34,616 bases of DNA from Methanobacteriota archaeon. Lineage in GTDB: Archaea; Thermoplasmatota; Poseidoniia; Poseidoniales; Poseidoniaceae. Shown piece after piece: positions 4,038 through 24,067 of this stretch (its first letter is position 1; the number at the start of each line of letters is the position of its first letter). Under the pieces are notes generated by a model, which was not told the DNA's origin, did not search any database, and saw only the letters and a list, made by a program, of their open reading frames with translations. The stretch spans positions 26,738 through 61,353 of the forward strand of contig PBMQ01000020.1 of NCBI GenBank assembly GCA_002722615.1. The letters run 5' to 3'. A program made the translations under genes and the position numbers.

Positions 4038-4099
4038 AATGTCCTTCCTGCACCAGAAGTGGGTGTCTGGTGTCACCATGCGTTACTCTGTGTAACGAA

Positions 4100-6731: not shown

Positions 6732-7013
6732 TTAGCCTTTTCCGCCTCTCTTACCGCCCTTGGTGCTCATCTTGCTCATCACCTTGCCGCCTTTAAAGTA
6801 GCCCTTCGCCATCATCTTGTTGGCTACCTTTGTTTTTCCGCCGCCTGCCATCTTCCCTTGGCCGTCTGCGGCAAAATGCGGCACCTCTTGGCCCTTGTCG
6901 TTCGTGACCATTTTCATCTTGCCGCCTGCCTTCATACCCTTGGGCACCATCTTGCCGCCTGCCTTCATGCCCTTGGGCATCTTGCCGCCTCTACGATTCA
7001 TCTTGTTCTTCAT
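6732..7013 (-). CDS. Small, very basic Lys/Gly/Met repeat protein
   Basis: ATG 7013 with GAGG RBS; repeated (K)GMKAGGKM units; stop abuts the portal GTG. Confidence 0.65.
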   Translation of the reverse strand: MKNKMNRRGGKMPKGMKAGGKMVPKGMKAGGKMKMVTNDKGQEVPHFAADGQGKMAGGGKTKVANKMMAKGYFKGGKVMSKMSTKGGKRGGKG

Positions 7014-8431: not shown

Positions 8432-9914
8432 GCGGGTCGAAGTCATCTTCCTCGTCAGACCTGAGCGCCACAAAGCCGCCCTGCCTGAAGCGAAGAAGTG
8501 CTTGCGTTGAAGAGTCAACAAGGTCGTCGTGCTCCCCCGCAGGGAACGCGGCAAACTCCTCCATGACCTCTTCAGCGAATCTTGTCTCCGGAGCCCACAC
8601 GGTCCCAGAGGCGAACAAGTCAGCAACGGCATTAACCCTTGCTATCTTGTCGTTACCACGCGAGGGGGTGTATTCCGAAACCGGAATCCCCATCGCCCGT
8701 AGCTCAAATATAAGCGGCATCCCTGCCGCCTTTCCTTCCACGATAAATGCATCTGGTTGCATTTCGCTCCACATCTCGTAAGCCGTTTTTTTTAGCTCTG
8801 GGAACTCCAGACGTTCTTTGTAGGCATCCAGTAGGATGACATTCGGCTGTGATACGCCGTCATCGTCGGGGTGATAAAAGACACCCCAAGTTGTGCAGGC
8901 AGAGTAGTCCGCCCGTTGAGTTTTTAAGAAAGCTGTGTCCCATGACTGAATCACGAACTCACATTGCGGAGGATAGTCTTTCTCCCAGACCTTCCACCAT
9001 TCTCTCTTGATAAGTGCGCCCTCTTCGGACGTTGGGTTTTGCTGATACTGCGCGTTCCACTTGGGGGAGGGCAGTTCACTCCGCAGAGCCTCAAGCTCCG
9101 TTTGGCTCCAGAACTCAGGCCACAGGGGTTTCCCTGACGGCATGATGGCTGGAAATTCTATAACCTCCCACTCATCGGAGCCTACCCGTTGAGCAGAAGA
9201 CTTAATAATCTTGCCGGTCAGATCACGCATATGCCAGCGTGTCATTACAATGACGATAGCGCCTCCCGGCTGAAGACGCTGTCGAGGCCCAGATGTGTAC
9301 CAGTCATACGTCCGGTCAAACACCGCTGGGTCTGCTGACTGGCCCTCTTGCTCTGAATGAGGGTCGTCAATAATCAAAAGGTCTGCACCTTTACCTGTTA
9401 CCGCACCGCCAACACCGATAGCGAAGTATTCGCCGTTCTTGTTGGTGCTCCAGCGGCCTGCCGCCTTGGAGTCTGCTCTTAGCTGTAGATTGGGAAAGAC
9501 TTTCTTAAAGTCATCCGAGTCCACAAGGTTTCGGACCTTTCGGCCAAAACCCACAGACAATTCCGCGGTGTGCGCCGTCTGGATAATCTTTTTCTCAGGC
9601 ATCTGGCCTAAGAACCATGCTGGTAACAAGTAAGAGGCAAACTCAGACTTGGTGTGCCGTGGTGGCATATTTACGATAAGGCGCTTCAGTTCGCCTCTGG
9701 CAATGCGCTCAAACGCCTCGGCCATGATCTTGTGGTGTCTGCCCTCAATAAATGCAGGCCACATGTGCTTCACAAAACCCATATAGGTGTTCTGTGCCGC
9801 CTCAACTTCTTTTGCAGTCTTGGCCTTTTCTAGTATTTCTGCGGCTCTTAACCGTACCTCTTCAGGTGCGTCCTGTAGCTTCTTGGCTAGATCGGGCGTA
9901 ATTAAGCCTGACAT
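8406..9914 (-). CDS. terL: Terminase large subunit
   Basis: Walker A NMPPRHTKS, Walker B LLIIDDP, coupling motif VMTRWH, nuclease SWDTA and HDDLVDS. Confidence 0.95.
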   Translation of the reverse strand: MSGLITPDLAKKLQDAPEEVRLRAAEILEKAKTAKEVEAAQNTYMGFVKHMWPAFIEGRHHKIMAEAFERIARGELKRLIVNMPPRHTKSEFASYLLPAWFLGQMPEKKIIQTAHTAELSVGFGRKVRNLVDSDDFKKVFPNLQLRADSKAAGRWSTNKNGEYFAIGVGGAVTGKGADLLIIDDPHSEQEGQSADPAVFDRTYDWYTSGPRQRLQPGGAIVIVMTRWHMRDLTGKIIKSSAQRVGSDEWEVIEFPAIMPSGKPLWPEFWSQTELEALRSELPSPKWNAQYQQNPTSEEGALIKREWWKVWEKDYPPQCEFVIQSWDTAFLKTQRADYSACTTWGVFYHPDDDGVSQPNVILLDAYKERLEFPELKKTAYEMWSEMQPDAFIVEGKAAGMPLIFELRAMGIPVSEYTPSRGNDKIARVNAVADLFASGTVWAPETRFAEEVMEEFAAFPAGEHDDLVDSSTQALLRFRQGGFVALRSDEEDDFDPHGRVANYY

Positions 9915-10165
9915 TACGCCATCCGTGCTGTTTTCGTGCGTTTAAACGACCTGTTCTTTGATCTGTTCGCCACCTTCAAGTTGCCCTTCTTGTTAGAGCC
10001 GCCTTTTGCCAGTGGTTTTTTGTGAGCAACATCCTTTCCGTCGCCCTTGGAAACCTTGCCTTCCTTCTCCATCAAGCGCCTAGCGGCCTTCCGCTTATCG
10101 TTGTTTCGGCGCTGTTTTGGCTTGGATTGGTAGTTTTCGTATTCCTTGCGGTAGTTTCGCCTCAT
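9914..10165 (-). CDS. HNH-endonuclease-like small basic protein
   Basis: GDGKDVAHKKPLAKGGSN...NL...NRS HNH-like pattern; TAATG coupling to terL. Confidence 0.7.
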   Translation of the reverse strand: MRRNYRKEYENYQSKPKQRRNNDKRKAARRLMEKEGKVSKGDGKDVAHKKPLAKGGSNKKGNLKVANRSKNRSFKRTKTARMA

Positions 10166-12201
10166 ATCGTGGTCATCACGCCGCCCCTGCGGAAGAACTC
10201 ATCGTTGTAGGGGCCACTATAAAAGCCAAAATTAGGAGCATAGCTTATAGTGTTGTCTAGACCGCCAACCGGAATATCTCTGAATCCACCAAATTGACGA
10301 CCGCTAAAGTATGGATTTCCGAACTGTTCTCTAAAGGGTGTGGTTGTGGGAGAGGGTCCACCTGCCATGACCCCGGAAAAACCACCGCCTGTCGCGTAGG
10401 GGTTGTAACCTCCGCCGAAACCGCCGCCTTTGCCGCCTCCCCCTCTTCCGCCTTTTCCGCCGCCAGATCTAGGCGGCTGGAATCCACCATATGGGCCAAA
10501 GCCAGTGGAGTATCCAGACATCAGTCCGCGGTTAGGCATGTACTGTTGAGACATGCCATAAGGAGAGCCGAAACCTCCGCCCTTACCGAATCCGCCCATA
10601 CCACTAAAGCCCATCGGATTACTCAGGCCGTAAGGACCGGAAAAAAGTTGATTGCCGGTAATGTACTGCCCGGGCATTCTGTAAAGACCGCCAGACGGAT
10701 ATGTTGAGCCGCCCGAAGATGTACCGCCTCCGCCAGATGTGGTGCCTCCACCACCCCCAGATGTATTGTCTGTTACTGCGTCTGCCCTCGCTTGATACTC
10801 GCTTAGGTCAGAGCCATACGGAACATTCGCAAAACCGCCATCTATAGCAAATGGGCTGTTTGCTCTGTCGATTCCGAGTGAGTTCAGATAGGCTTGATAG
10901 TCGTTACTCTGACCAGTGGCCGCACCACGATCATAAGCGAGTTGCACAAGGTTCCGTCTAAGCTGGTCTTCTGTTAATTGACCAGACTCAAGATTCCTCA
11001 TGTACTGGCCGTATCCGCCTGTGAACTCCCCTGTGGCATCGTCTCGTATACCCCTCGCTGGCCTTCTGCCAAATAACGCTTGAGTCGCCGAAAAAACAGG
11101 GTCGCCCGACTGACTGCCTTGGTAGTACAGACTATCTAGCGGGCCGGCCTCATTAATCAGAACATTCCTAAGGTTGGCAGGGTCGTATGCGCCAGCATTC
11201 AATCGCTGGTTGAAGTAGTCCAGACCGGCTTGACTGGGCGATCTGTTAAAAAGCTCTCGGTAATACTGATTAAGCAGGGTGTTGTAATTTGTTGGGCTGA
11301 AACCACCGTCTCCCCCCGAAGAGCTTGCTGAACTGCCACCTCCAGCACCCCCGGTGCTTCCGGACCCTCCAGTACCTCCAGCATTTCCAGTATCTCCGGC
11401 GCCTGCGCTTGAACCTGCACTACCTCCAGAGTCTCCAGTGCCAGAAGTGTCAGCAGTGCTGGCATCTCCAGCAGTGTCCTGCTGAGCAGAATTCGCTTCT
11501 AGTTCGCTTAAAATAGATTCGTAATTCTGCGCCGAACCAGAATTGACCGCCTGAAAGATCTTCTCACCGTAAAAATCTAGTGCTTCACTGTCAGCATCTC
11601 GTCCAAAATATTGACGAAAAAGCTCATTAGCATGTTCTTTTGCTCGGTTTCTTTGAGCTAACCGCGCCGCGCCGGAACTGCCCCCGTCTCCGTAAATGGT
11701 ATTGAAAATGCTTTGGTAGGCACCGAATGTGTCTTGGTTTTGGCTGGGCGTTGAGGATGGTGATGGATCCTGAGCAGGTTCCGACTCGCTTTCTTTAAAT
11801 TTTGCCTTGTAACTGTAATTGACGGGTCGAACGTCAAAGGAAGTGACGGTGCCGTCGGGATTTGCGAAATACTGCTTATCGCCAATCCGCGTAGTCTGAG
11901 AACTTTGAGGGAGTCTGTATAAGTTGCCTTCCGAGTCCGTAACGCTACGGCCTCCGCTGTTCAACATGTTTTGGCGAACGCGCTCCAAGTCAGACATGTT
12001 GCGCGGGTCTTCCTCATAAATGCCGAATGTAGGGTCGTATGTTGTACCACCGCCCAGCAATGCGGAAAACTCTGCCGGAGACAGGGTCTGCCCGGAGCCG
12101 GGAAGCGCCACCAACCCACTAAGCGCACTGCGCCGTCGATAAATCTCAGGGTCTATTTCCGCCAAGGCTGATGGGCTTACATAATCACTGTATTCGGCCA
12201 T
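10162..12201 (-). CDS. Gly-rich protein with DUF4214-like repeats and an aromatic/Gly low-complexity C-terminus
   Basis: 679 aa, AAGGAGG RBS, ATGA coupling; motifs LFRQYFGRDADSEALDFY, YYRELFNRSPSQAGLDYF, QALFGRRPA. Confidence 0.7.
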   Translation of the reverse strand: MAEYSDYVSPSALAEIDPEIYRRRSALSGLVALPGSGQTLSPAEFSALLGGGTTYDPTFGIYEEDPRNMSDLERVRQNMLNSGGRSVTDSEGNLYRLPQSSQTTRIGDKQYFANPDGTVTSFDVRPVNYSYKAKFKESESEPAQDPSPSSTPSQNQDTFGAYQSIFNTIYGDGGSSGAARLAQRNRAKEHANELFRQYFGRDADSEALDFYGEKIFQAVNSGSAQNYESILSELEANSAQQDTAGDASTADTSGTGDSGGSAGSSAGAGDTGNAGGTGGSGSTGGAGGGSSASSSGGDGGFSPTNYNTLLNQYYRELFNRSPSQAGLDYFNQRLNAGAYDPANLRNVLINEAGPLDSLYYQGSQSGDPVFSATQALFGRRPARGIRDDATGEFTGGYGQYMRNLESGQLTEDQLRRNLVQLAYDRGAATGQSNDYQAYLNSLGIDRANSPFAIDGGFANVPYGSDLSEYQARADAVTDNTSGGGGGTTSGGGGTSSGGSTYPSGGLYRMPGQYITGNQLFSGPYGLSNPMGFSGMGGFGKGGGFGSPYGMSQQYMPNRGLMSGYSTGFGPYGGFQPPRSGGGKGGRGGGGKGGGFGGGYNPYATGGGFSGVMAGGPSPTTTPFREQFGNPYFSGRQFGGFRDIPVGGLDNTISYAPNFGFYSGPYNDEFFRRGGVMTTI

Positions 12202-12238: not shown

Positions 12239-12363
12239 CCCTAGGAATGTACTAGCTCTAGGAAGTTTCTAGCTAGAAACCACCCATAAACAAAAACTTA
12301 GTAACTTACTAGGCCAGAACAGTCCTAGTGCTAGGAGATTTCTAGATCTAGAACCTTACTAGG
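12239..12363. repeat. CTAG-rich palindrome array 1
   Basis: 11 CTAG in about 125 bp; perfect palindromes GTTTCTAGCTAGAAAC (12265-12280) and TTCTAGATCTAGAA (12340-12353). Confidence 0.85.
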
Positions 12364-12387
12364 TAGAAATACCCCCGGATTGTACAG

Positions 12388-12416
12388 AATATAACCCCTT
12401 GACAGTAACATGTCTA
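12388..12416 (-). promoter_or_regulatory. Sigma70-like promoter pointing into the late operon
   Basis: Minus strand TAGACA (12416-12411), 17-nt spacer, TATATT (12393-12388). Confidence 0.55.
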
Positions 12417-12643
12417 CAGTTAGACGGGTTTTTTGGCCGATTTTTTGTTAATTTTTGGCATTTTGGTCAAATTTTGCAGAAATATAGGGGGGTATGGGGC
12501 TCCTAAGGCGATTTCCCATGAAAAAACCCCCGATTAGACAGTGTGACAGTGAGACAAAGTTCAAAATTAGCTCATTTTTTGAGCGGATCACTATGTATAT
12601 AGAAGCGACATGGCCTCGAGCTACAGGGGGGGTGGGGGTCGCT

Positions 12644-13138
12644 TCAATGGATGTCCACAGTATCTGGCCGATCCCGGGAAAACTCGAGATCGTCTACGTC
12701 TGACGTGTCATCAGCAGTGGCTGAGTCGAGCATCGCATCGAGTTCGGCGAGCAGGTCAGCCGATGACCGCACGTCGACCTCAGCTGTCAGTTCGACAAAG
12801 GCGCCGGATGCGCGGCCCAGTAGCTCCAGAGCGCGGAGCCTGCCGCTATCCTGAGGGCTGGCAGTGAGCGCGAGGTCTCGCAGATGCTTCCTGACCATCT
12901 CACGGTCAGAGAGTGCAGAAGCAACCATACCGGCCTCTCTAGCGCGTATCAGCTGGTCATACCTTGACTTTACCTTGCGTGACCCAGCGAGCCTACTCGC
13001 TCTCTCATGCACGCTCTTGGCCTTGGCCTCCGGCCCCACGTCGAACGCTTCCCGATAGGCGTCAGACTGAGACATACCGCTAGCCCACGCCCGACAGAAG
13101 TGAAGCTGTTTGCTTGTGAGTTCCTTGTCGTCTGCCAT
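12644..13138 (-). CDS. terS: Terminase small subunit
   Basis: LTSKQLHFC...SQSDAYREAF...ASRL HTH-type N-terminus and RLRALELLGR C-terminal motif; AGGAG RBS. Confidence 0.8.
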   Translation of the reverse strand: MADDKELTSKQLHFCRAWASGMSQSDAYREAFDVGPEAKAKSVHERASRLAGSRKVKSRYDQLIRAREAGMVASALSDREMVRKHLRDLALTASPQDSGRLRALELLGRASGAFVELTAEVDVRSSADLLAELDAMLDSATADDTSDVDDLEFSRDRPDTVDIH

Positions 13139-13586
13139 GAGTGCTCCTATAAACTTGTTGCCTGCAAGGGGTCTGCAGATCGTAACCTAGAATTTACTTT
13201 AACTATAGCCCCTAAATGCACTCGGTTGTAACTTCCGATTAAATACCTAAAACGGCCTCTGAGCGACATTAAGACATGACTAGGGGTATGACATGGCTCT
13301 TGATAACATGTCTCACAGAGCCATACAGAGCCTCTGAGGGCATGTTCAACTGCAATTAAATGCTCTGAAACGCACTAAAAAGTCGTCACTAAATCACGCT
13401 TACAGGCCGAACTTAAAGTAGATTCTAGGTCTATCAGCTGTACGTTTTCGCGTAGGTATATAAAAGGCACCATGACTTCAGTGGTATTATTTCACACAAT
13501 GCTTCATGTCAACTTGTCATCAGATAGCCTTATAATCCGCTCACGGGCCGACGGTACCCATGTAAATATTACCGTTAATATTACCA

Positions 13587-13602
13587 ATCCTGTAGGAGGG
13601 AT
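13587..13602 (+). promoter_or_regulatory. Repeated RBS hairpin ATCCTGTAGGAGGGAT, copy 1
   Basis: Identical 16-mer at 14958 and 17578; each lies a few nt before an ATG. Confidence 0.75.
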
Positions 13603-13606
13603 TTGC

Positions 13607-14008
13607 ATGCGAAAAATCGAGACTGAAATGAACGCCGCGGTCATGCTTGGGCGTGACTGGACTCAGGCCAACACCAGCACCAAAAGGATATACGGCGCCG
13701 ATGCGAAGGTGGGCGTATACCTTCATGACAATCACATTGCTACGGTCTGGAATGCCTGCGATGGCCGTGATCGCTGGACCGTCGAGGTCAACACCCGCAC
13801 GCTGAGTGAGTATCCGACGCGCACCACCATGTCGCGGCTACGCGCTCTGGGCGCCGATGTCTGCACGCGCAAAGGTCAGGTCATGCTCGACGGGGAGGCC
13901 TTGTGCGACGTGCTCGTCTCACCTATCAAGCACTACACCCGACCATCGATGCTCACCGGCGACGGCGGCGTGATCGTGCTCGACGAGATTGGAGGTAACG
14001 ACTTGTGA
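13607..14008 (+). CDS. Early hypothetical protein
   Basis: MRKIETEM...VYLHDNHIA...TTMSRLRAL, similar to a recurrent phage early family; start set to ATG 13607 by the RBS. Confidence 0.7.
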   Translation: MRKIETEMNAAVMLGRDWTQANTSTKRIYGADAKVGVYLHDNHIATVWNACDGRDRWTVEVNTRTLSEYPTRTTMSRLRALGADVCTRKGQVMLDGEALCDVLVSPIKHYTRPSMLTGDGGVIVLDEIGGNDL

Positions 14009-14958
14009 GTACATTCATCGAGAACCTATCAAACAACATGTTATTGCTACCCGTTTCGATGGGGCGTATCCAGTTGGAGGTGAAGACTAAAAAGGGCGCC
14101 GATGCGATCAAATCCGCGCTGGGTGTCGCTGAGGGTGTCCGCGCTGGCGGCACCATCGGTGCGCTGGGCGCGATGACTGATCTAGCCGCTGAGTTGATCA
14201 ACCGCCCCTATGGCCACGCACGCACATACACTTACACCCGCACGCTCGCCGCCGCTGTCCGCGGTCATCGCATCGTGACCACTACCCGCACGCCTGAGCA
14301 CCTGACCCGCTATGCTGAGTTCAGGCACGCAATGAACAGCGGTATCGAAGAATTCATGCCGCAGTATGAGACGTACTACAAAAGCACCAATGGCATTGCC
14401 GACATGGGCTCCAGTCAGATCAAGATCCCGCACCCTGACGCCGTGCGCGAGAAGGCCTATATCAACATCGGCGTACCCCAGCAGATCCGGCCTACTGACC
14501 TCGATGGTATGAATCTCCCCGCCGGTCTGGCCGCTGACATTGCCGCACGCACTGACGCCCACATCATGCAACAGGCAGAGGCCGCGAAGACCGCCGCCGT
14601 CGAGGAGTTGGCAAAGGCCGTCGATAACATCGAGAAACAGTTGACCTCAGGCAAACGGCTCCACGACTCGCTGATCTCGAACGCACAGAATGCATCCCGC
14701 AACCTGCGCGAGTTCACCGACTCATTCGACAACGACCCCCGCCTGATCGAGGCCTGCGATATTGTCGACGACCGCATCGCGTCATCTACCCTTGAACAGG
14801 TTAAAAACAGTGAGACGTTGCGCTCTCAGGCGGTCCGCGCCGCGTCTACTGCAAGCAAATCCCTCAAGCGAGTCGCATCGGCCCCCGCCGTGTCCGCACC
14901 CGCTGAGGTTGGCACCATCATCACCGGCGACTCACTGCTCGCTGACTTAATCGACTGA
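14005..14958 (+). CDS. DUF3150-like helical protein
   Basis: 317 aa, GTG start with GGAGG RBS; RLHDSLISNA...DPRL pattern; adjacent to an AAA ATPase and a vWA gene. Confidence 0.55.
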   Translation: MSTFIENLSNNMLLLPVSMGRIQLEVKTKKGADAIKSALGVAEGVRAGGTIGALGAMTDLAAELINRPYGHARTYTYTRTLAAAVRGHRIVTTTRTPEHLTRYAEFRHAMNSGIEEFMPQYETYYKSTNGIADMGSSQIKIPHPDAVREKAYINIGVPQQIRPTDLDGMNLPAGLAADIAARTDAHIMQQAEAAKTAAVEELAKAVDNIEKQLTSGKRLHDSLISNAQNASRNLREFTDSFDNDPRLIEACDIVDDRIASSTLEQVKNSETLRSQAVRAASTASKSLKRVASAPAVSAPAEVGTIITGDSLLADLID

Positions 14959-14973
14959 TCCTGTAGGAGGGAT
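14958..14973 (+). promoter_or_regulatory. Repeated RBS hairpin, copy 2
   Basis: ATCCTGTAGGAGGGAT before ATG 14980. Confidence 0.75.
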
Positions 14974-14979
14974 ATCACA

Positions 14980-16122
14980 ATGCAAAACACAGTAATCAAC
15001 GCAACGATGGCCGACGTGGATAAGATGATCCCCACGATGCTCGCATCACCCCAAGGTTTCCAGCCTCTGGGCCTGATAGGCGCCCCCGCCATGGGTAAAA
15101 CCATGTACTTTCAGACTCGCTTTCGTGAGCATATGGCGAACCACTACGGTGTGCAGGTCGACGATATCGGCATCGTAATCGAGAAGATCGGGCAGGCCGA
15201 AGACGCCGCCGCCGTTAACGGGCTCACCCTGCCCAGCAAGCTGGCAGACGGTACGGTTGCCACTATCAAATCGAAGCCGTCGATATTGGTACGCATCGAG
15301 GCAACCGGCAAAGAGTACGGCGTTCTGCTACTCGACGAGGCCGCTCAGGCTGGCACCCATGTCGTGGGCTCGCTGGGTGACACCTTCAACCGTGCGGAAC
15401 ACAAGGTGGGCGACTGGCCTCTGCCTGAGGGCTGGGTAGTGGTCTTCACCGGCAACCGTGTCGAAGACAAGTCAGGGTCTAGGCAGTTCCCGTTTCACAT
15501 GATCGCAGGCCGTGGCCTTCTCGTTAACTTGTTACAGGATAGAGATGGCTGGGTAGGCTGGGCTCGCGGTGCCGGTATCAACCCGCTGTTTGTCGGATTC
15601 ATTGACGCCGATCTCAACAATGTCGGGTTCGCTGACGCGGTCCCGTCAGAGTATGGACCCTACCTGACGCCCCGCTCAGGTGTTGCCGCCGCCGCTCACC
15701 TTGATGCCTTCATGGCCTCAGAAGAGTTCGATGGCACTGAGATCCCCGCTCACATTATCACCCTGATGGCGATGAATATCGGACAGCGTGCGGCCTCTGC
15801 TCTTAACGAGTACATCAAGACCGCCGACAGCGTCCCCATGGGTCACGAGATCCTTGCTGATCCAGAGGGCGCCATGGTGCCAGACGATACCGGCTTTCAG
15901 CAGTTGGCCGCGAACCGCGCCATGAATGCCATCGTGAGTGAGGCTGACGCTGATGCCGCTCTCACCTATATCGTGCGGTTGCGTCCCGACCTGCAGGTAT
16001 CGTTGGGCACCAAACTGATCCGCCGCTCATCACGAGAAGGCTGGGCTATGGTCTCGCCCATAGCGAACGCCTTCATTCGGAAGTTCTCAGACTTCCTCCC
16101 ACTAGCCGCAGAGGAGCGATAA
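14980..16122 (+). CDS. MoxR-like AAA+ ATPase
   Basis: Walker A GAPAMGKT, Walker B LLLDE, sensor LPEGWVVVFTGNR, TPRS. Confidence 0.85.
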   Translation: MQNTVINATMADVDKMIPTMLASPQGFQPLGLIGAPAMGKTMYFQTRFREHMANHYGVQVDDIGIVIEKIGQAEDAAAVNGLTLPSKLADGTVATIKSKPSILVRIEATGKEYGVLLLDEAAQAGTHVVGSLGDTFNRAEHKVGDWPLPEGWVVVFTGNRVEDKSGSRQFPFHMIAGRGLLVNLLQDRDGWVGWARGAGINPLFVGFIDADLNNVGFADAVPSEYGPYLTPRSGVAAAAHLDAFMASEEFDGTEIPAHIITLMAMNIGQRAASALNEYIKTADSVPMGHEILADPEGAMVPDDTGFQQLAANRAMNAIVSEADADAALTYIVRLRPDLQVSLGTKLIRRSSREGWAMVSPIANAFIRKFSDFLPLAAEER

Positions 16123-16124
16123 GC

Positions 16125-17546
16125 ATGAAAGCTAAAAAGCTATACGCCGCAACGCACGATCTGACCAACAGCCGCAAGCATGTCGCGGCCATGATTATCC
16201 TGAATGCGAAGACGCCGGTCCACTACACCACCCTGCTGGCCACTGAGATCATATGGACCACAGCTATCCCTACCGGTGCCACTGACGGCGTGTGGGTGTA
16301 CATCAACCCTGAGTTTTACCGCGGGTTGGCGACTGACGGTCAGCGTGCATTCCTGCTGGCTCACGAGGTGTCGCACATTATCCTGCGACACCCCCAGCGC
16401 AGTCTGGCCTATCAGAAGCGCGGGTTCTTCCGGCATGGCATGAGGTTCGTGCACCGCATCTACAACAGCGCCGCCGACTATGTGATTGACGCTGACTTGG
16501 TCGCGATGGGGTTTGAGATGATCCCTGAGTGTCTCTATTCAGACAAGTATCAGCGCGATGACGTTGTCGATGCCGTGTACGCGGACATCTACAAGGATCA
16601 GCCCGAAGAGCCTGAGCACGGCGAGCCTGAGGGTGAAGAGGGCGGTTTCCCGTCTCCTGAGTCTGGCAACTCTCAGCCCAATGGGGACGGTGAGGAAACT
16701 GAAGGCGAGCCCAATGGTGCAGGTACTCAGAGCGGTGAGCCTACTGACAACATGTCATCAGGAGAAGGTGACCTGCCCGCACCCGCAGGCCACGACTACC
16801 ACCTCACCCCTGAGTATGAGGGCGATGCCGACGAGCAGGCCGATGCCGCCGCTCAAGACGAGCACGACATCAGCGAGGCGATCGACCGCGGTCTGGATCA
16901 GATGGAAGCTGAGGGCAAGGATACCTCGAAGGTCTCCGACAACGTCAGGGACGGCGGCAACCGCTACCGCTCAGACAAGCAATCCAATGTGGCGTGGAAT
17001 GCTGAACTTGCTGACCGTGTCAGCCGTGTGGGCAGGGGCGAGCGCACCAGCTTCTCCCGCATCAAGGTTCGGCAGTATGCCACTATCGGCGTGATCAGCC
17101 CTGAGACGCTGGGCGAGTTTACCCGCCTGACCGTGATCAGCGATATCTCATCGTCTGTCAGGGACGAGCCCTTCAAGGCCTACCTCAACGAGTTGGCCGC
17201 AATTCAGGACGCGGTCAACCCTATTGAGGGCGTGACCATTCTCTGGACTAACCATCAGGTCGAGCGTGCAGACGAGGCCTACTCTAGCGACGAGCTTCTC
17301 AACATCGAAATGCCATGGAAAGGTGGCGGCACGCGCATGTATGCCGGTCTCGATTGGCTGGATCAGAACGGCGTCGAGTCTGACCTGATCATGGTGTTCA
17401 CTGACGGCGAGTTATACGGCAACGACTGGACCCGTCTGGGCGCTCAAGATGACCTGCTGGTCGTGCTGGACCGCGAGCCTGACCTCTACACCCAGCGTGA
17501 GCTTGTCAGTCACGACATCGACTACATCGTCGCTGAGGCGGCGTAA
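16125..17546 (+). CDS. DUF2201-type metallopeptidase plus vWA-like domain protein
   Basis: ATDG, HEVSH (HExxH), acidic linker, then MIDAS-like DISSS, GGGT, FTDG. Confidence 0.85.
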   Translation: MKAKKLYAATHDLTNSRKHVAAMIILNAKTPVHYTTLLATEIIWTTAIPTGATDGVWVYINPEFYRGLATDGQRAFLLAHEVSHIILRHPQRSLAYQKRGFFRHGMRFVHRIYNSAADYVIDADLVAMGFEMIPECLYSDKYQRDDVVDAVYADIYKDQPEEPEHGEPEGEEGGFPSPESGNSQPNGDGEETEGEPNGAGTQSGEPTDNMSSGEGDLPAPAGHDYHLTPEYEGDADEQADAAAQDEHDISEAIDRGLDQMEAEGKDTSKVSDNVRDGGNRYRSDKQSNVAWNAELADRVSRVGRGERTSFSRIKVRQYATIGVISPETLGEFTRLTVISDISSSVRDEPFKAYLNELAAIQDAVNPIEGVTILWTNHQVERADEAYSSDELLNIEMPWKGGGTRMYAGLDWLDQNGVESDLIMVFTDGELYGNDWTRLGAQDDLLVVLDREPDLYTQRELVSHDIDYIVAEAA

Positions 17547-17547
17547 C

Positions 17548-17565
17548 GGGGGCACTGCCCCCTTT
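17548..17565 (+). terminator. Rho-independent terminator (short U-tract)
   Basis: GGGGGC-ACT-GCCCCC-TTT immediately after the vWA gene stop. Confidence 0.6.
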
Positions 17566-17577
17566 CATTAACAAGTT

Positions 17578-17593
17578 ATCCTGTAGGAGGGAT
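17578..17593 (+). promoter_or_regulatory. Repeated RBS hairpin, copy 3
   Basis: ATCCTGTAGGAGGGAT before ATG 17598; overlaps TAACAAGTTA (17569-17578) by 1 nt. Confidence 0.75.
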
Positions 17594-17597
17594 CGAT

Positions 17598-17822
17598 ATG
17601 CAACGCACCAGAGACTACCGAATCGCCCAGCGCAAGCGAGCACTGGCAAAGGCAAAGCGGATACTGCGTCAGAACTCAATGATTGAGTCCAGCGACGTGG
17701 AATGGCTGGCCCCACGCATGGCCGACAATCTCCGCAACTGCTCCTGCCACTTGTGTCAGGCACCAGAGAAGGCAAAGCCGCGCCTGCGGGTGACCGCCGC
17801 TGATTTACTGGAGGCCGCATGA
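17598..17822 (+). CDS. Small basic protein with CxCxxC motif
   Basis: 74 aa, CSCHLC, strong RBS. Confidence 0.65.
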   Translation: MQRTRDYRIAQRKRALAKAKRILRQNSMIESSDVEWLAPRMADNLRNCSCHLCQAPEKAKPRLRVTAADLLEAA

Positions 17823-18190
17823 AGTACAAGGTCACAGTGATTGAGTCATATGAATTGGAGGTCGAGGCCGACTCAGCAGAGGACGCTAAGAACTTCATGA
17901 TGGTCGGACAGCCGTGGGTCAGCGGCAGGCACTCAGAGGTCTGCGGCATCCCACGCCAGACCGGCTACCGCAAAACGGCATACGCCAGCATCCTGCCCCC
18001 AAAGAAACCAGCTGATGATGGGGGCTATCTCGACGTGCTGAATGAGATGGCACGGTACGAGGAATCGGACATGCGTCATGCTCCTAACTTGTTAAAGGAT
18101 TGGTACGGGATCAGCAAGGCCGAAGCGATGCGACTGTTCAACATGTGGATCAGGTCGCTGTCAGACGAAGAACAGCTGAGCCTTTTCTGA
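17819..18190 (+). CDS. Hypothetical protein
   Basis: 123 aa, GGAGG RBS, ATGA coupling. Confidence 0.65.
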   Translation: MKYKVTVIESYELEVEADSAEDAKNFMMVGQPWVSGRHSEVCGIPRQTGYRKTAYASILPPKKPADDGGYLDVLNEMARYEESDMRHAPNLLKDWYGISKAEAMRLFNMWIRSLSDEEQLSLF

Positions 18191-18252
18191 GAAATGTCCA
18201 TAGTAGATAAAGAGATTTAGACATAGGCATCAATGCCTGTTATCATCACAAC

Positions 18253-18270
18253 GTATCTGTAGGAGGATAT
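18253..18270 (+). promoter_or_regulatory. Repeated RBS hairpin, variant copy 4
   Basis: GTATCT-GTAGGA-GGATAT before ATG 18275; same loop, altered but still paired stem. Confidence 0.6.
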
Positions 18271-18274
18271 CATT

Positions 18275-18544
18275 ATGTTTTGTAGCGAATGCTCGAGATC
18301 AAACGGACATCACCCCAACTGCCCAAACGCAGAGGACATGCCTGAGCCCACCTTCACCGTCTGGCAGGTAGGCAAGGTGCCCGACACAGTGCTCAGGTCC
18401 GAAAGCGCCATGCGAAAAGCCGCCAGAGAACTGGGCTTTGACCCCAGCGTAGTCATCTCAGAGGGCGAGGCAGACATCGTAAGCGAGTGCGGGATCGTGA
18501 CGGGCGGTTGCTACGTCAACGAAGAGGGGCATGAATATGTTTAG
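18275..18544 (+). CDS. Hypothetical protein with N-terminal CxxC-H-C Zn-binding motif
   Basis: CSEC....HHPNCP; AGGAGG RBS. Confidence 0.65.
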   Translation: MFCSECSRSNGHHPNCPNAEDMPEPTFTVWQVGKVPDTVLRSESAMRKAARELGFDPSVVISEGEADIVSECGIVTGGCYVNEEGHEYV

Positions 18545-18767
18545 GCTCCCGAAGAAAAACCCGCTCAACACTGACCGGTTAGTGCGCTCTGCGATCTCAG
18601 GATCTGCCGGTGAGCCATACTGCAATCTTATCCTTGACTCGTTAGGAGTAGAGGATTACAGCCACTGGTCCCTCGACGATATTCACAAGTTCTGGGATGA
18701 CGCTAGCCAGTCTGACCTGACGGTGGCTGAGTTCATCCTGCTGAAGAAGCAGGAGGTAGCGGCATGA
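18531..18767 (+). CDS. Hypothetical protein
   Basis: 78 aa, overlaps both neighbours, GAGGGG RBS. Confidence 0.55.
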   Translation: MNMFRLPKKNPLNTDRLVRSAISGSAGEPYCNLILDSLGVEDYSHWSLDDIHKFWDDASQSDLTVAEFILLKKQEVAA

Positions 18768-19756
18768 AGCGCCCAGATTCTGACTTGATTCGCCGGTTTA
18801 TTAAGCACAAAGCCTTTAACTCTGTATCTATGACGCTCGAAGGAGTTTTCGAGTTGCCCTACTTCTATCTTTCTTACAAGAAGATGGAGGAATTTGACTT
18901 CACGACTGGCGATGATTTTCCCGACGCAACTGACGGCACACTGTTGGGAAACCCCGTCAAGGTAATTGAAAAAAAGCACAATGGTGTGGATGTGGTTAGG
19001 TCTTACGCGCATAGCGCAGAGTTTGTCTATGACGAGTTTGTATTGTCAGCCAAAACGGAGGTACAGCTAGAACTCCACGACTCTTCTATCCAGACGGCAC
19101 CTGTCAATTACTGGGGCGTTATCAAGGCATCTCACGATCACACGAACTTTGTCGATTCGATTTTATTGTTTATCGAATACCCAGAGGCTCCAAGACAGAT
19201 TGTAATCTGGGAGGGTTGGGCAAAATCAAATGATGGAAAGATAGACATGGTGATGGATCCTGAGTACGAAAAATATATGAGAACGTGGTATCAAAGTCTG
19301 GTTAATGGCGCCTATGCTGTCGAAGGCGGGTTCGACAAGTATATGAGCGGTATTACGAATCAGGCCGCTCAGTGGTATTTGTTTATTTGCAAACTGATGT
19401 CTCATATTAAGTACGGCGACAAGCACGTCGTCGAAGTAACTCCTACTCCTGACAAGTTAGCAAAAGCAAAGCGGAACCCCGTGAACCGCAAGCGTCCGTG
19501 GGCCAAGTCAAGTGGGCCTCATGTCTTGCTGTTGGATCGGATGCCGACAGAAAAGACGGAGTCTACAGGTACGCACGCTAGTCCAAAGCCACACAAGCGG
19601 CGAGGCTACTGGAAAACACTGCGAGACCCACGGTTTCGTCACCACCCGCAGTATCAAAAGCATATTTTTGTGAAGCCCTGTTTTGTGGGCGAAAAACAAG
19701 TCACATACGAAGGCAACATTTACCGGCTCGTCGAGCCACTGGAGGGGGAAGCATGA
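18764..19756 (+). CDS. Hypothetical protein with basic HASP-x-H-x-RRG C-terminal motif
   Basis: 330 aa; GTHASPKPHKRRGYWK...FVKPCFVG, a recurrent uncharacterised phage motif; AGGAGG RBS. Confidence 0.7.
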   Translation: MKRPDSDLIRRFIKHKAFNSVSMTLEGVFELPYFYLSYKKMEEFDFTTGDDFPDATDGTLLGNPVKVIEKKHNGVDVVRSYAHSAEFVYDEFVLSAKTEVQLELHDSSIQTAPVNYWGVIKASHDHTNFVDSILLFIEYPEAPRQIVIWEGWAKSNDGKIDMVMDPEYEKYMRTWYQSLVNGAYAVEGGFDKYMSGITNQAAQWYLFICKLMSHIKYGDKHVVEVTPTPDKLAKAKRNPVNRKRPWAKSSGPHVLLLDRMPTEKTESTGTHASPKPHKRRGYWKTLRDPRFRHHPQYQKHIFVKPCFVGEKQVTYEGNIYRLVEPLEGEA

Positions 19757-19905
19757 AAGCTACCTTGTTTATCGTGCTGATTGTACTGGCACTGGGCATA
19801 GTGGGAGAGGATGACTATCAGCAGGAAATTGCTGATGTTCGCCACTACTGCGAAATGGTGGGGTCAGGTGTCTGGCCTGACTTCAACAATAACGTGAACT
19901 GTTAG
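19753..19905 (+). CDS. Small membrane-anchored or exported protein (50 aa)
   Basis: Hand-translated MKATLFIVLIVLALGIVGEDDYQQEIADVRHYCEMVGSGVWPDFNNNVNC; ATGA coupling, GGAGG RBS. Confidence 0.65.
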   Translation: MKATLFIVLIVLALGIVGEDDYQQEIADVRHYCEMVGSGVWPDFNNNVNC

Positions 19906-19914
19906 GAGTAATAC

Positions 19915-20274
19915 ATGGCAAAGTATCGACGCAAAAGCAAAAGATGGTCACCTCGCGAAGACGCGGTGCTCATTTCTGGAATACAGAACGAAAAACCCTA
20001 CGAAGAGATTGGCGGTGAGCTTGGAAGAACAGCCTCCTCCGTCGCCCAAAGAATTTATTCTTTGCGACACAAATCTCTAGCCATCCCGCCGCTGGCCAAG
20101 GCAAAGCCACAAAAAGCGGTAAGGCGGGTAGAGCCTGTCATCAAGGCATCGGAGCCAGAGATCAAAGCTATTGCGGATGACAACCGCATTTGGCTGGCAA
20201 TGGCTAGCGGGGTAACCAGCGCCTTCCTCTCACTTGCCACCCTCGTAGTCATCTTGATTGCCTTGATGACATGA
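19915..20274 (+). CDS. Myb/GcrA-like HTH protein with C-terminal transmembrane helix
   Basis: WSPREDAVL...EIGGELGRTASSV; hydrophobic C-terminus; AGGAG RBS. Confidence 0.65.
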   Translation: MAKYRRKSKRWSPREDAVLISGIQNEKPYEEIGGELGRTASSVAQRIYSLRHKSLAIPPLAKAKPQKAVRRVEPVIKASEPEIKAIADDNRIWLAMASGVTSAFLSLATLVVILIALMT

Positions 20275-20435
20275 ATGCATATGACGCATTTGTCTTAGCG
20301 TCTGTTCTTTCGATTGGGGCACCGACAAATCAGCAAGCCAGACAGGCGGCACAGATAGCCAAAAGCATTGCTTTAGAGTTGAGTCCACTGCAAATTCAAA
20401 AGGGCAGAGAGGAGGCTATGAGTGTCATCGGATGA
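20271..20435 (+). CDS. Small hypothetical protein (54 aa)
   Basis: Hand-translated MNAYDAFVLASVLSIGAPTNQQARQAAQIAKSIA...; ATGA coupling; fills the gap between neighbours. Confidence 0.55.
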   Translation: MNAYDAFVLASVLSIGAPTNQQARQAAQIAKSIALELSPLQIQKGREEAMSVIG

Positions 20436-20604
20436 CGCACAGATAGCTGTGGAAGAGGCTATGTTACAGGCTGAAATTCTGGGCGAGGATGTGGCAATCA
20501 TGTCCGACCTCAGCGTTCAGCGGCTACGAAATACCACGGGCGCCGTGCTGGAGATAGTGCGGTGCCCCGCCCCTTTGAAAAGGCAAGATGGTGCCGTAGA
20601 CTGA
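20422..20604 (+). CDS. Small hypothetical protein
   Basis: 60 aa, GTG start with GGAGG RBS. Confidence 0.55.
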   Translation: MSSDDAQIAVEEAMLQAEILGEDVAIMSDLSVQRLRNTTGAVLEIVRCPAPLKRQDGAVD

Positions 20605-20686
20605 AGCTAGGGGGACACTCCTACACGGCGTGCGGCGGCGTCGATAGAGTTTACGCATTCCCCCGATCCTTGTGATTAGCGTACTC

Positions 20687-21166
20687 TCAACCGCCGCTCT
20701 TTAAATGCCTTACCGGATTCTTACCACCGGACATACGCCGCTCAGCAATCCAGCCCAGCCCCTTTTTTAGGGTGAGAAGCCTTTCTTTTGATGCAGAAAT
20801 GTCCCACCCATGGACCACCACCTCCTCGACAAGATACCTAGCATAGTCGCCATATCGCCTACCGACTAGTCTTAAAGTCTTTCCGTACCGCATCAAGGCG
20901 TCAGACGCCATCGAGTCTGGATTTGCATCTCCTGACCCCGCCTCGTACCTGAGGGGCTTGGAAAAGATGCCGGCCTTCACCGCCTGACTCAGAATATACT
21001 CTCCAGCTTGGTGCTCACCCAAGGTCAGTAAACCGTCCATGAGATATCTGTCAATCACATTCTGATCCATGACTTTGGCGCGAGGCATCGTGCCGCCCTC
21101 CACCATGACGGCGTGGCGCTTGTGTATCTCTTTTGTGCCTAAGTCTGTGTGTAACTTGTCAGTCAT
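20687..21166 (-). CDS. DUF6456-like protein, possible transcriptional regulator
   Basis: IDRYLMDGLLTLGEHQAGE motif and helical C-terminus; downstream of the helicase. Function is inferred. Confidence 0.5.
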   Translation of the reverse strand: MTDKLHTDLGTKEIHKRHAVMVEGGTMPRAKVMDQNVIDRYLMDGLLTLGEHQAGEYILSQAVKAGIFSKPLRYEAGSGDANPDSMASDALMRYGKTLRLVGRRYGDYARYLVEEVVVHGWDISASKERLLTLKKGLGWIAERRMSGGKNPVRHLKSGG

Positions 21167-21235
21167 ACGAAATGTCCCCGGACCCGGAAATTGTCCCCGG
21201 ATAATAAAAACTCTGCTGAGAACTTGTTAACAGTA

Positions 21236-22984
21236 CTAGAACTCATCGAAGTCATCCCATGCCCTGCCCCGCAATTTAGACAGGCTCGTGGTCGGCGGAT
21301 CTGGATCGGGTGTCCTCTCGGTGTATGTACCGTTAAACATGTTATAGCTAAGATGTGCTACGCCCTGAGATCCCACCCACTTGAATCTTGATTTCCAACA
21401 GTGTATCTCGACGCATTCATCTGTTCTGTGAACTGTCACACCTAGATCAGCCTTGGCAAACCATGCGGCAGAGCCTGAAATATTCATGCCCTTGGGGACT
21501 GCGTAGGTGCCATCCTCACGGGGGTACATCTTCTGGGGGTGCGCGACAAACCAGACGTGAATGCCATGCGCTTTGGCAAAGCTGGTGATTCGGGTCAGCA
21601 TCTGAGAAATGTTGCTGTGTTCTTCCTGACTGCTAGATTCTATGTAGTTGTACGGGTCGATGATGAGACCCCGCACGCCCATACGCATGACCGCCTGCTT
21701 GGCCCTATCGATAATTGAGTCAATCGTGCTGAGGCCACCGTCCTTGCTTTCAAGGAAGACAAAGTGATCGTTTATAAACTCGACAGCCTCACCTAGCTCA
21801 TCCTCTGTCATTCTCTCGCTAAGTCCGGTGTAAAACGGCTTGCCTGATACCTTTTCAGCCAGCTTGGCGATGTGCATATGTGGCGGGTTTTCAAACGAAC
21901 AGACCGCAAACTTCCACGATTCACGTTTAGCAAGGTTGATCATAATCTGATCGATAAACTCAGACTTTCCTGAGCTTGGCATCCCCGTCACAACAGACAA
22001 CTGGCCCTCAGCAACGGTAAATAACTCGTCAATCGAGTCAAATCCCGTCGAGGCGCCCCGCCCGTGACCGTTCTGGTAGATGTCCTTGACTGCATCCATG
22101 TACTCGCTGACACCATACACACCAGACAAGGGTATCGGCTCAGGGTTGTCGAAGATCCTGCGGGTTTCTTCGGCTCCTAACTTGTCAACAGCATCGTTTG
22201 CATCTTTGGCGCCCTTGGGGAATTTGACCCTCCAGCACTTTGCTCTGCCCACTCGGCGCGCAATCTCCTCTGCCAGCGCCTCGCCAGCCTCATCGCTATC
22301 TGTCGCCAGAACAATCTTCTTGCACCGATCTAATCGCTCGCGTTCATTCCACACAAACGCAAACTTTTTATCCTCCTCAGGATCTACCCTGTTGTGCGAT
22401 ACCTTTATCGGCGCCCCATTTGGGCAGGAAACGGCCTTGATTCCGATGCTGGCTAGAGCAATGACATCACACTCCCCCTCAACTATCGTTAACTCTTCAG
22501 CCTCTTCCTCTATGTTTTCGATGCCGTAAAAGGATCTTGGTGCGCCATCGCAGGTAAACCCCTTGCCCTCTACAGATCGCCACTTAATTGCCGTTGGCGA
22601 CTCCCGTGTGCCGTACACAAAACCAACCGCCTGCTTCTCCTCGCCCCCAAACCACTTGGTGCCGGTGGTCATCAGGGGTAGGTCATTGATGTCGTTGATT
22701 TTTACCCCTCGGGAGGAAAAGAAGTTCTTAACAAGTTCTACATTATCGTTTAGCTGTGTGGGTATCTTTACTACTTTACTTTGTGTCATATGAGCCTCGT
22801 AAAATTTTTCACGCCTGTAAGACCCAGACAAACCGCAATGGTGGCAGTGGTAAAGGGTATGGTCTGGCTTAACGGTGATTGAAAGTGTCTTTATAGTTTT
22901 CTTTTTGCGTGCATCTGAGCAGTCTGGGCAACGCTCTCTGGCATCTTGATTATGACTCAGGATGAAGTCTTTCAAGCTGTCCAT
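21236..22984 (-). CDS. Bifunctional primase-helicase (T7 gp4/Twinkle-like)
   Basis: Zn finger CPDC...CHHC; TOPRIM IVEGECD, ATDSDEAG, KDAND; SF4 helicase GMPSSGKS, IIDPYN, FVAHP, ISGS. Confidence 0.92.
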   Translation of the reverse strand: MDSLKDFILSHNQDARERCPDCSDARKKKTIKTLSITVKPDHTLYHCHHCGLSGSYRREKFYEAHMTQSKVVKIPTQLNDNVELVKNFFSSRGVKINDINDLPLMTTGTKWFGGEEKQAVGFVYGTRESPTAIKWRSVEGKGFTCDGAPRSFYGIENIEEEAEELTIVEGECDVIALASIGIKAVSCPNGAPIKVSHNRVDPEEDKKFAFVWNERERLDRCKKIVLATDSDEAGEALAEEIARRVGRAKCWRVKFPKGAKDANDAVDKLGAEETRRIFDNPEPIPLSGVYGVSEYMDAVKDIYQNGHGRGASTGFDSIDELFTVAEGQLSVVTGMPSSGKSEFIDQIMINLAKRESWKFAVCSFENPPHMHIAKLAEKVSGKPFYTGLSERMTEDELGEAVEFINDHFVFLESKDGGLSTIDSIIDRAKQAVMRMGVRGLIIDPYNYIESSSQEEHSNISQMLTRITSFAKAHGIHVWFVAHPQKMYPREDGTYAVPKGMNISGSAAWFAKADLGVTVHRTDECVEIHCWKSRFKWVGSQGVAHLSYNMFNGTYTERTPDPDPPTTSLSKLRGRAWDDFDEF

Positions 22985-23020
22985 CTGTTTGACTACCTCC
23001 TACTTGTATGATATTGGTAG

Positions 23021-23095
23021 CCCTAGGACTGTACTAGACTAGAACCTTCCTATTTAAAATAGGTATATATCTAGACTAGAACCTTCCTAGGGAAG
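23021..23095. repeat. CTAG-rich array 2, candidate replication origin
   Basis: 6 CTAG; 19-bp direct repeat CTAGACTAGAACCTTCCTA (23034, 23071); AT-rich inverted repeat CCTATTT-A-AAATAGG; just upstream of the primase-helicase. Confidence 0.75.
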
Positions 23096-23111: not shown

Positions 23112-23134
23112 AGCCCCCGCTAGGGGGCTTTTTT
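23112..23134 (+). terminator. Rho-independent terminator, U-tract on the plus strand
   Basis: AGCCCCC-GCTA-GGGGGCT followed by a T run. Confidence 0.65.
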
Positions 23135-23384
23135 ATGCGCACTGAAACAACTCTTCCATCACCATTTCAGCAACAACCCTCTGTTGCGTCCGGCTCAAGC
23201 AGAGCATTTCGTCTAGTGCGTCTTGCAGGCCAACGGGGTAACCCGCCAGCCGGCAGTGATAAGAAAAAGCGTTAGATTTCAGATAGTTAATGGCGGCATC
23301 ACGGTCAACTTGCTGGTTACAAACCAAGTCTTTGATGGCCTGAAGGATGACCTTGCTATACACAATTTTATAGGTGTCTGACAA
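23133..23384 (-). CDS. Conserved hypothetical phage protein
   Basis: 83 aa, VILQAIKDL...F..HCRLAG pattern. Confidence 0.6.
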   Translation of the reverse strand: MSDTYKIVYSKVILQAIKDLVCNQQVDRDAAINYLKSNAFSYHCRLAGYPVGLQDALDEMLCLSRTQQRVVAEMVMEELFQCA

Positions 23385-23775: not shown

Positions 23776-24033
23776 ATGAGCAAAATGGGACGTTATGTCT
23801 TTGATCTACAGATGGCTGAGGAGGCCGAGTTTTATGGACATCCAGATAGAAAAGCACGTACCAATCCCCAAGCGGACAAAGATACCGGACCTGCCGCTGG
23901 CAGAGATGGAGATCGGCGACTCTTTTGTGGCACCCATCAACGCGAGCGAGCAGACGGAGGTCAGAGCACTCCGACAGCGGATCTCCCGATGGCAACGGGA
24001 CCGACTCCCTGTGAGATTCTCCGTCGTTCGTGA
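23776..24033 (+). CDS. Hypothetical ORF overlapping the next gene
   Basis: Strong GAGGAG RBS and plausible N-terminus MSKMGRYVFDLQ; last 200 nt overlap 23834..24067 in another frame. Confidence 0.4.
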   Translation: MSKMGRYVFDLQMAEEAEFYGHPDRKARTNPQADKDTGPAAGRDGDRRLFCGTHQRERADGGQSTPTADLPMATGPTPCEILRRS

Positions 24034-24067
24034 CGGCGAGCAGATGAGAGTCTTCCGAATCGCGTGA
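23834..24067 (+). CDS. Small putative DNA-binding protein
   Basis: IQIEKHVPIP...LPLAEMEIGDSF...MRVFRI family pattern; start set to ATG 23834. Confidence 0.7.
   Translation: MDIQIEKHVPIPKRTKIPDLPLAEMEIGDSFVAPINASEQTEVRALRQRISRWQRDRLPVRFSVVRDGEQMRVFRIA

Follow-up and report, generated by a model that had tools for sequence, protein, structure and literature searches.

Among described phage systems, the OL and OR operator arrays of lambda, bound by CI and Cro, and the dispersed C1 operators of P1, where C1 controls both replication and late-activator genes, are close to the arrangement analysed here. It consists of two arrays of CTAG-containing palindromes that lie 10.7 kb apart in a 34,616-nt stretch of DNA (the window; C20:26738-61353 of bin G000, where C20 is the contig PBMQ01000020.1). 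In lambda and P1, clustered near-palindromic sites at distant promoters are all read by one protein, and related phages have different site types and proteins, which confers an 'immunity' specificity; the clustering of sites recurs here, and a common reader with matched specificity may do so too. In contrast to these phages, no integrase or recognisable repressor is encoded on the contig, and the arrays would guard replication and late operons, not early ones. Other comparable systems are the bipartite or iteron origins, namely ori/crr of P4 with its alpha primase-helicase, oriL/oriR of SPP1 with G38P, and the SaPI ori. They share with the window two distant homologous repeat clusters, or repeats around an AT-rich segment, by a primase or helicase gene, as well as a matched lineage specificity, but here an initiator was not found, the second cluster lies in a late leader past a promoter, and one lineage is without the primase-side cluster. 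The heptads of the pSM19035 omega repressor and the iterons of R1 parC are likewise contiguous short-site arrays at several promoters, which flank the promoter core and coordinate replication control with other functions. However, their 7- or 11-bp units are read by ribbon-helix-helix proteins, whereas neither a ribbon-helix-helix gene nor a partition ATPase was recognised on the contig. Finally, the sigma-like, dimeric protein GafA, which has DUF6456-annotated homologs, binds at two promoters, its own and that upstream of the gene for the small terminase of the Rhodobacter gene transfer agent, according to the part of the source available to us (PMC9638019). The window is similar in that a remote DUF6456 relative, p159, appears to be encoded behind one array (array 2) and the other (array 1) heads a packaging and structural operon. 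It differs in that p159 comprises 159 aa versus 382 aa for GafA and a DnaA-like N-terminal domain was not detected in p159, and the same part of PMC9638019 does not describe the GafA sites as palindrome arrays. In the literature, we found no description of arrays like those of the window; with supplements left aside, the main text of PMC9599517 does not contain 'promoter', 'palindrom', or 'intergenic', and that of PMC12753301 does not contain 'promoter'.

We see about an even chance that the two arrays are operators that co-regulate the replication and late operons of a phage. The first-pass annotation of the window had recognised two homologous, co-oriented arrays with 11 and 6 CTAG motifs, one preceding a primase-helicase gene (array 2) and the other a packaging and late operon (array 1). 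This description was confirmed, and all strings quoted in it were found in place. CTAG starts at 12241, 12252, 12258, 12269, 12273, 12309, 12325, 12331, 12342, 12348, and 12359 in array 1, and at 23023, 23034, 23039, 23071, 23076, and 23087 in array 2; a seventh CTAG near array 2, at 23120, is located within a hairpin. The repeat unit is a 15-bp palindrome, CTAG-N7-CTAG (consensus CTAG-D-A-M-N-K-T-H-CTAG), and the reverse-complement match between the arrays, also reported earlier, exists because the sites are palindromes. Each array comprises 4-7 sites with a centre spacing of 16-17 bp. With up to three mismatches, CTAGAACCTTCCTAG matches eight places in the window, five of them in array 1 and three in array 2, compared to a mean of 0.75 after shuffling (0/100 shuffles reached eight). 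The exact pattern CTAG-N7-CTAG occurs six times in the 1.84-Mb bin, always inside the two arrays, and a CTAG density scan revealed that runs of at least five CTAG spaced by at most 40 nt exist nowhere else in the whole bin. The accompanying premise that CTAG is rare fails for the window, which contains 89 CTAG versus expectations of 81 (second-order Markov model) and 134 (base composition); the arrays are local CTAG outliers, not islands in a CTAG desert. Among 54 distinct sites gathered across relatives, three are perfect 7+1+7 palindromes, and the outer CTAG and A6/T10 are invariant, although the CTAG, A6, and T10 positions were fixed by the criterion used to collect the sites.

Equivalent arrays were found at syntenic places in related phages. 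A search with the primase yielded 76 IMG/VR loci, and the 69 with the N-terminus were examined. Array 2 was present in 27 of these 69 loci, with 6-8 CTAG and 1-3 exact 15-mers within 260 nt upstream. These 27 are exactly the loci with a primase identity of at least 73%, and CTAG arrays occur in 0/42 of the rest. The layout of array 2 in 19 distinct relatives consists of site pairs around an AT-rich centre of ~10 bp, and the last site is 38-44 nt from the ATG; the corresponding distance to the start codon is 38-39 nt in those late leaders of type A that were inspected. Array 1 was found upstream of the homolog of the 679-aa gene in four of six loci and partially in a fifth. A search with the conserved block that contains the predicted late promoter retrieved 22 loci, ten with at least six sites, seven with shortened arrays, two of the G006 type described below, two decayed, and one partial. 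In the records of five relatives, all exact CTAG-N7-CTAG places (23/23) fall in the two array places. Four records, from near-complete relatives, extend over both places and put a distance of 9.5-10.9 kb between them. Phage DSL-LC04 is without a primase homolog and has no such arrays in the region inspected.

The relative G006, whose primase and RusA are 69% and 75% identical, respectively, to their counterparts in the window, has exchanged its sites. CTAG sites are absent at both array places while the flanks are conserved, and the replacement site is CGTAwwwwTACG at both places, represented by CGTATATATACG and CGTAAATTTACG in the late leader and by CGTATATAAACG and CGTATATATACT upstream of the primase gene. 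With at most one mismatch, CGTAWWWWTACG has four matches in the 24.5-kb G006 contig, all in the two array places; only four of 256 equivalent palindromic patterns reach four matches, and the matches to the control pattern are scattered. As the sites were swapped between conserved flanks, and the 5' untranslated region (5'UTR) of the late leader is nearly identical to that of a CTAG-type genome, the arrays behave as cassettes. Moreover, both arrays switched type together, which argues for one lineage-specific DNA-binding factor that reads both. The first-pass annotation had listed a shared protein signal among its explanations, and the comparative data, with both arrays conserved in relatives and switched in concert in one lineage, point that way. 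One metagenome run from the same sample as the window contained a G006-type variant that shares with it only the promoter block (loose ends at 12372 and 12404).

More distant relatives, with primase identities of 46-48%, have arrays of WACTAGTW around an AT-rich run and a second array 10.6-11.2 kb away. The two arrays comprise 6+10 sites in G010, 11+6 in G013, and 3+4 in G011; in G012, which is 47% complete, the primase-side array alone was seen. In G010 and G011, the second array precedes packaging genes; in G010, the small terminase gene and the same promoter-like block, TATATTCTACAAT, come before this array and the large terminase gene after it. Five AAGGATTWC sites are found in the late leader of the G008 lineage (60% primase identity), whose primase gene lacks an array. 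Given the arrays at both places in distant relatives, the two-array layout is old. In the sequences compared, the site is lineage-specific and always common to both arrays of a given genome. The early region of G010 (locus L118) encodes a 109-aa protein (8688-9017, minus strand) that by eye resembles XRE/Cro-like helix-turn-helix proteins and could read the arrays of that lineage.

If the arrays are operators, one sequence-specific, probably dimeric, phage-encoded protein would bind the 15-bp palindromes of both. The arrays are situated in the putative promoter and leader regions of two leftward operons, one for the primase-helicase and the GafA-family protein p159, the other for packaging, head, tail, and lysis functions, and replication and late genes would thus share one transcriptional control. 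In the primase operon, the promoter-proximal site would overlap the -35 element of the likely promoter and cause occlusion. Other predicted promoters of this phage read TAGACA-17-TATCAT and TAGACA-17-TATATT, and distant relatives have TTGACA-17-TATCGT at the place homologous to the candidate primase promoter. In the late operon, the ~140 nt that come after a conserved sigma70-like promoter would be filled by sites and form a roadblock; array 1 is located at roughly +18 to +140 of the predicted transcript, and in relatives the -35 and -10 elements of this promoter are conserved while the spacer is variable. The bound protein would most likely repress or gate transcription until it is removed or titrated. 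Because one site of array 2 lies over the likely -35 element and the sites of array 1 fill the leader, repression or gating is favoured over activation, and regulation by repression is the more likely mode.

Three proteins are candidates for binding the arrays: p90, which is the DUF7303 lead, the membrane-anchored, Myb-like p119, and the DUF6456-related p159. Co-variation was assessed by taking the positions that are invariant in eight CTAG-type sequences and counting those changed in G006. The counts are 2/69 for RusA, 5/39 for p83 (an 83-aa protein whose gene follows RusA), 14/171 for the primase, 1/54 for p159, and 14/27 for p90. The share of changed positions in p90 thus compares to 2-13% in neighbouring proteins, although alignment noise at the C terminus may inflate the count. 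Every CTAG-type genome checked has the p119 gene at the syntenic place, G006 has none, and one homolog carries PF00249. A small membrane protein, p50 (phrog_6168, with conserved Cys residues), always accompanies p119 (both genes within 19753-20274, plus strand), and the two may form a membrane complex. The affiliation of p159 with DUF6456 is a profile-level link only: hhalign gave a probability of 97% (E 8.7e-11, 130 columns), and a profile search with p159 reached proteins that Pfam scores as DUF6456, with three of 42 distant matches over the cut-off at 44-63 bits on PF20057; matches to the p159 family number 261. For the C-terminal domain of p159, the best alignments are to sigma region 4 domains (among the top 50 VIA rows, at least 11 are named as sigma, Z 4.2-5.7; AF2 model, pLDDT 69). 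The Z scores of these rows are low, and Foldseek retrieved no match to the same model. The gene stays after the primase gene out to G010. As p159 did not change with the site type, it may read the conserved promoter block and not the arrays. As determinants of site specificity, p83, p159, p60, RusA, and the primase were rejected, none of them being specially changed in G006, and so was the small terminase as array reader, which shows no co-variation with the array type. A Pfam scan of 20 G006 open reading frames (ORFs) detected no DNA-binding family at E<=0.1. The three named proteins can be tested, and the arrays are a sequence signature that is searchable in viromes.

Several observations weigh against co-regulation by operators, or against the candidates named for it. 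The primase array of distant relatives does not cover the promoter, which is complete there, but is located ~27 to 130 bp upstream of it; such a position suits an upstream activator site, or else an origin, more than the operator of a repressor. A 5'UTR hairpin, in which two pairs are compensatory, weakly favours a different transcription start, namely the GGG that follows the last site. By analogy, sites around an AT-rich core beside a primase-helicase gene would also have the look of a classic origin. The core of p90 gave an AF2 model (pLDDT 84) with no Foldseek match at E<=0.001, and its best VIA match, an R3H domain with Z 5.1, is not significant. The Myb match of p119 is sub-threshold, and the co-variation of p90 and p119 rests on one switch event. 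For p159, PF20057 had no match to the protein and eight relatives at E<=10, and a six-frame genome search had none at E<=0.01; furthermore, p159, p83, and the primase show no specific change in the switched lineage.

The paired origins proposed in the first-pass annotation were weakened by the analysis but are still a live, if rather doubtful, alternative. The sites would be bound by an initiator around an AT-rich unwinding element, with array 2 as the main origin and array 1 as a second origin or a cis-acting replication element, and these functions can coexist with promoter control. The layout of sites, AT-rich centre, and sites is found at both arrays in all lineages, wherever array 2 exists it adjoins the primase-helicase gene, and the placement of the array upstream of the promoter in distant relatives would also fit. 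PHROGs and Pfam searches recognised no DNA polymerase, known initiator, or origin-binding domain on the contig; without the first two, recruitment of the host replisome would be needed at a defined site. Matched sites that are specific to a lineage typify pairs of initiator and origin. Array 2 forms an imperfect dyad of 72 bp with DNA fold z scores of -3.5 and -3.8, whereas array 1 reaches only -1.1 and -2.1. The cruciform that had been suggested for both is thus unlikely at array 1, and at array 2 the dyad stands but has a long mismatched centre. On the other side, the GC skew, which had been proposed as a check, tracks gene orientation only, the AT-rich centres are short (~10-22 bp), and the G008 lineage has its array in the late leader alone. 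Array 1 lies downstream of a conserved promoter, and in 7+2 of 22 loci it is shortened or decayed, with the promoter block intact. Relatives also conserve the spacing between the sites and the start codon. Of the neighbouring products, p83 is a protein of unknown function and p159 a remote DUF6456 member only. Should the origin also be marked by the arrays, the replicon of this phage group, which depends on the polymerase of its host, would be defined by them.

It is unlikely, and somewhat more so than an origin, that the arrays form an exchangeable 'specificity cassette' by which one lineage-specific factor locks both the replication operon and the 45-kb late operon. Such a lock would open by titration as replication multiplies the arrays, or by fork passage that alters the state of the arrays, and late expression would thereby be coupled to genome copy number. 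Since site type and factor would change in concert from one co-occurring relative to another, the system would additionally determine immunity or incompatibility when phages infect the same cell. Regardless of the mechanism, a conserved two-locus site system with co-switching motifs offers a handle on the timing of replication and particle production in HTVC023P-like phages, the group to which the contig belongs (see below).

A role in packaging is very improbable. Array 1 would be a pac-type site, organised like pacL-pacC-pacR, for the small terminase encoded upstream, and array 2 a second terminase site. In every lineage, a distance of 280 bp does separate array 1 from the small terminase gene upstream of it; the array is bipartite around an AT-rich centre, and phased A-tracts occur nearby. 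However, full CTAG arrays stand beside at least three very different small terminase N-termini, with a fourth in the shortened-array lineage G003, and conversely the decayed array of L098 accompanies an N-terminus that is nearly identical to that of L108 with a full array. As the small terminase type does not track the array type, the packaging function is weakened, and it offers no reason for a copy at the primase gene. The contig ends of relatives do not fall at the arrays, and DNA contigs from two runs bridge both arrays without end pile-ups, although contigs cannot show ends. More improbable still is a sensor of methylation state, in which a protein would distinguish full from hemi-methylation of 4-bp palindromes about one helical turn apart and so couple late transcription to fork passage. 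SeqA at oriC and the dnaA promoter, and the GATC elements of P1 pac, are precedents. The CTAG pairs are 11 bp apart (9-10 bp in G010), and every site type is a short palindrome of the kind targeted by methyltransferases, but a methyltransferase domain was not found on the 61-kb contig, and the conservation extends beyond CTAG to A6/T10 and the whole 15-mer. Promoters of a phage RNA polymerase (no polymerase gene found on the contig, and just two loci per genome), operators of a lysogenic repressor (neither an integrase nor a repressor recognised on the contig), and a plasmid-type centromere such as parS or parC (no genes for a partition ATPase and a centromere-binding protein on the 61-kb contig, where the sole ATPase pairs with a VWA/metallopeptidase protein) were rejected.

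Table 1. Arrays, genes, and predicted signals in the window (positions count from the first nucleotide of the window).
Feature	Position	Strand	Description
Array 1	12239..12363	-	Sites 12348-12362, 12331-12345, 12314-12328, degenerate 12298-12312; AT-rich centre ~12276-12297; sites 12258-12272, 12241-12255; GGGG after last site
Array 2	23021..23095	-	Site 23076-23090, degenerate site 23060-23074; AT-rich centre ~23054-23070; sites 23039-23053, 23023-23037
Late promoter (predicted)	12388..12416	-	Sigma70-like, TAGACA-17-TATATT; within block ~12372-12430 conserved in relatives
Candidate primase promoter	23008..23035	-	-35-like AGTACA 23035-23030 inside last site; 16 bp to -10-like TATCAT 23013-23008
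Primase-helicase	21236..22984	-	Toprim and DnaB-like domains; start codon 38 nt past last array 2 site
p159	20687..21166	-	159 aa; remote DUF6456 (GafA-family) link; co-transcribed with primase; candidate transcription factor
p119	19915..20274	+	Weak Myb/HTH-like N-terminus; C-terminal membrane helix
p90	23795..24067	+	DUF7303 lead; most diverged ortholog in switched lineage (36% identity versus at least 52% within CTAG type)
GC hairpin	23112..23129	.	Between 83-aa gene and array 2; conserved in relatives
Small terminase	12644..13138	-	164 aa; phrog_51, E 1e-11; Pfam Terminase_2 below threshold, E 0.002
Terminator-like hairpin (weak)	12570-12584		3' of small terminase
First late-operon gene	10162..12201	-	679 aa; start codon 39 nt past last array 1 site
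83-aa HNH-like ORF	9914-10165	-	Very basic; directly upstream of large terminase; phrog_4590, unknown function
Large terminase	8406-9914	-	

The features listed in Table 1 follow one another on the minus strand, around array 1, in the order small terminase, weak hairpin, phased A-tracts, TAGACA-17-TATATT, array 1, GGGG with a small GC hairpin, and the 679-aa gene. The small terminase gene had been overlooked earlier; the plus-strand ORFs at 12494-13231 are low-complexity antisense artefacts, and the true gene there is on the minus strand. The late operon continues after the 679-aa gene with the 83-aa HNH-like ORF, the large terminase, portal, head, tail, lysis, and ejection genes, and a giant polyvalent protein. 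The 83-aa ORF contains the pattern H..P....GG....N, judged by eye, and may encode a packaging-associated HNH protein. The late-promoter block, 12372-12430 (TATATTCTnnACAAT), is kept out to relatives at 46% primase identity and holds a near-palindrome, TGTCTA-ACTG-TAGACA; a similar motif, AGACATGTTA, is found upstream of the small terminase gene at ~13304. Array 2 lies between the primase-helicase gene, which p159 follows, and the p83 gene, with the GC hairpin on the p83 side. In all relatives, this hairpin (23112-23135) has a T-run on the plus strand and an A-run on the gene strand. If it is an intrinsic terminator, it would stop transcripts that leave array 2 away from the primase and not the RusA-p83 transcript. 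The 5'UTR of the primase gene (22985-23022, minus strand) may form a hairpin, CTACC...GGTAG, that overlaps the ribosome-binding site; two of its seven pairs are compensatory across nine relatives, and its consensus energy is weak (-4.9 kcal/mol). The 5'UTRs of the primase and late operons share no homology. Scattered RNA contigs of 150-360 nt, too sparse to map transcription starts, were all that two metatranscriptome runs from the same samples contained.

The 61,353-bp contig is a nearly complete, ~61-kb genome of an HTVC023P-like marine phage, probably mis-binned into an archaeal bin. It has 52% G+C and 2.7 CTAG per kb, compared to 45-49% and 0.5-1.5 per kb, respectively, in most of the other contigs of the bin. 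The large terminase is 57% identical to that of Pelagibacter phage HTVC027P, and the portal is 41-42% identical to those of Pelagibacter phages HTVC027P and HTVC023P and Synechococcus phage MinM2. A major head protein, a GroES-like protein, a holin, and an endolysin complete a gene set of tailed bacteriophages, and Shine-Dalgarno sites, predicted sigma70-type promoters, and hairpin terminators are present. C20:1-26737 has ORFs on its minus strand only. Where the contig ends interrupt ORFs (C20:1-810 and 28503-34616 of the window), the two parts join in frame by codon arithmetic into a polyvalent protein of ~2,307 aa with an LPD38 domain, which suggests a circular, complete genome assembly. In a megablast search of 15 kb of the window against GenBank phages, no match was obtained. 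HTVC023P-like phages count among the uncultured viruses that abound in the surface ocean. PHROGs/Pfam-type scans of the 61-kb contig found no phage RNA polymerase or integrase, and a lysogenic repressor was not recognised on it. As far as the part of PMC12753301 available to us describes them, HTVC023P-like phages are without an RNA polymerase of their own, and a cultured relative depends on the host enzyme and shows temporal gene classes.

Other features of the bin and the phage are peripheral to the arrays. Contig C9 of the same bin (19.7 kb, 44.6% G+C) has the bin maximum of 3.2 CTAG per kb and may be foreign or viral. Among the head genes of the late operon (2225-8632, minus strand) are a GroES-like gene (3681-4079), a member of a PHROG annotated as ferredoxin (6991-7689), and a gene of the Asp/Asn beta-hydroxylase family (7655-8632). 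The early region (14980-17546, plus strand) encodes a MoxR-like ATPase (phrog_1297) beside a DUF2201 metallopeptidase/VWA protein, and homologs exist in the relatives G001 and G004 and in the distant G010.

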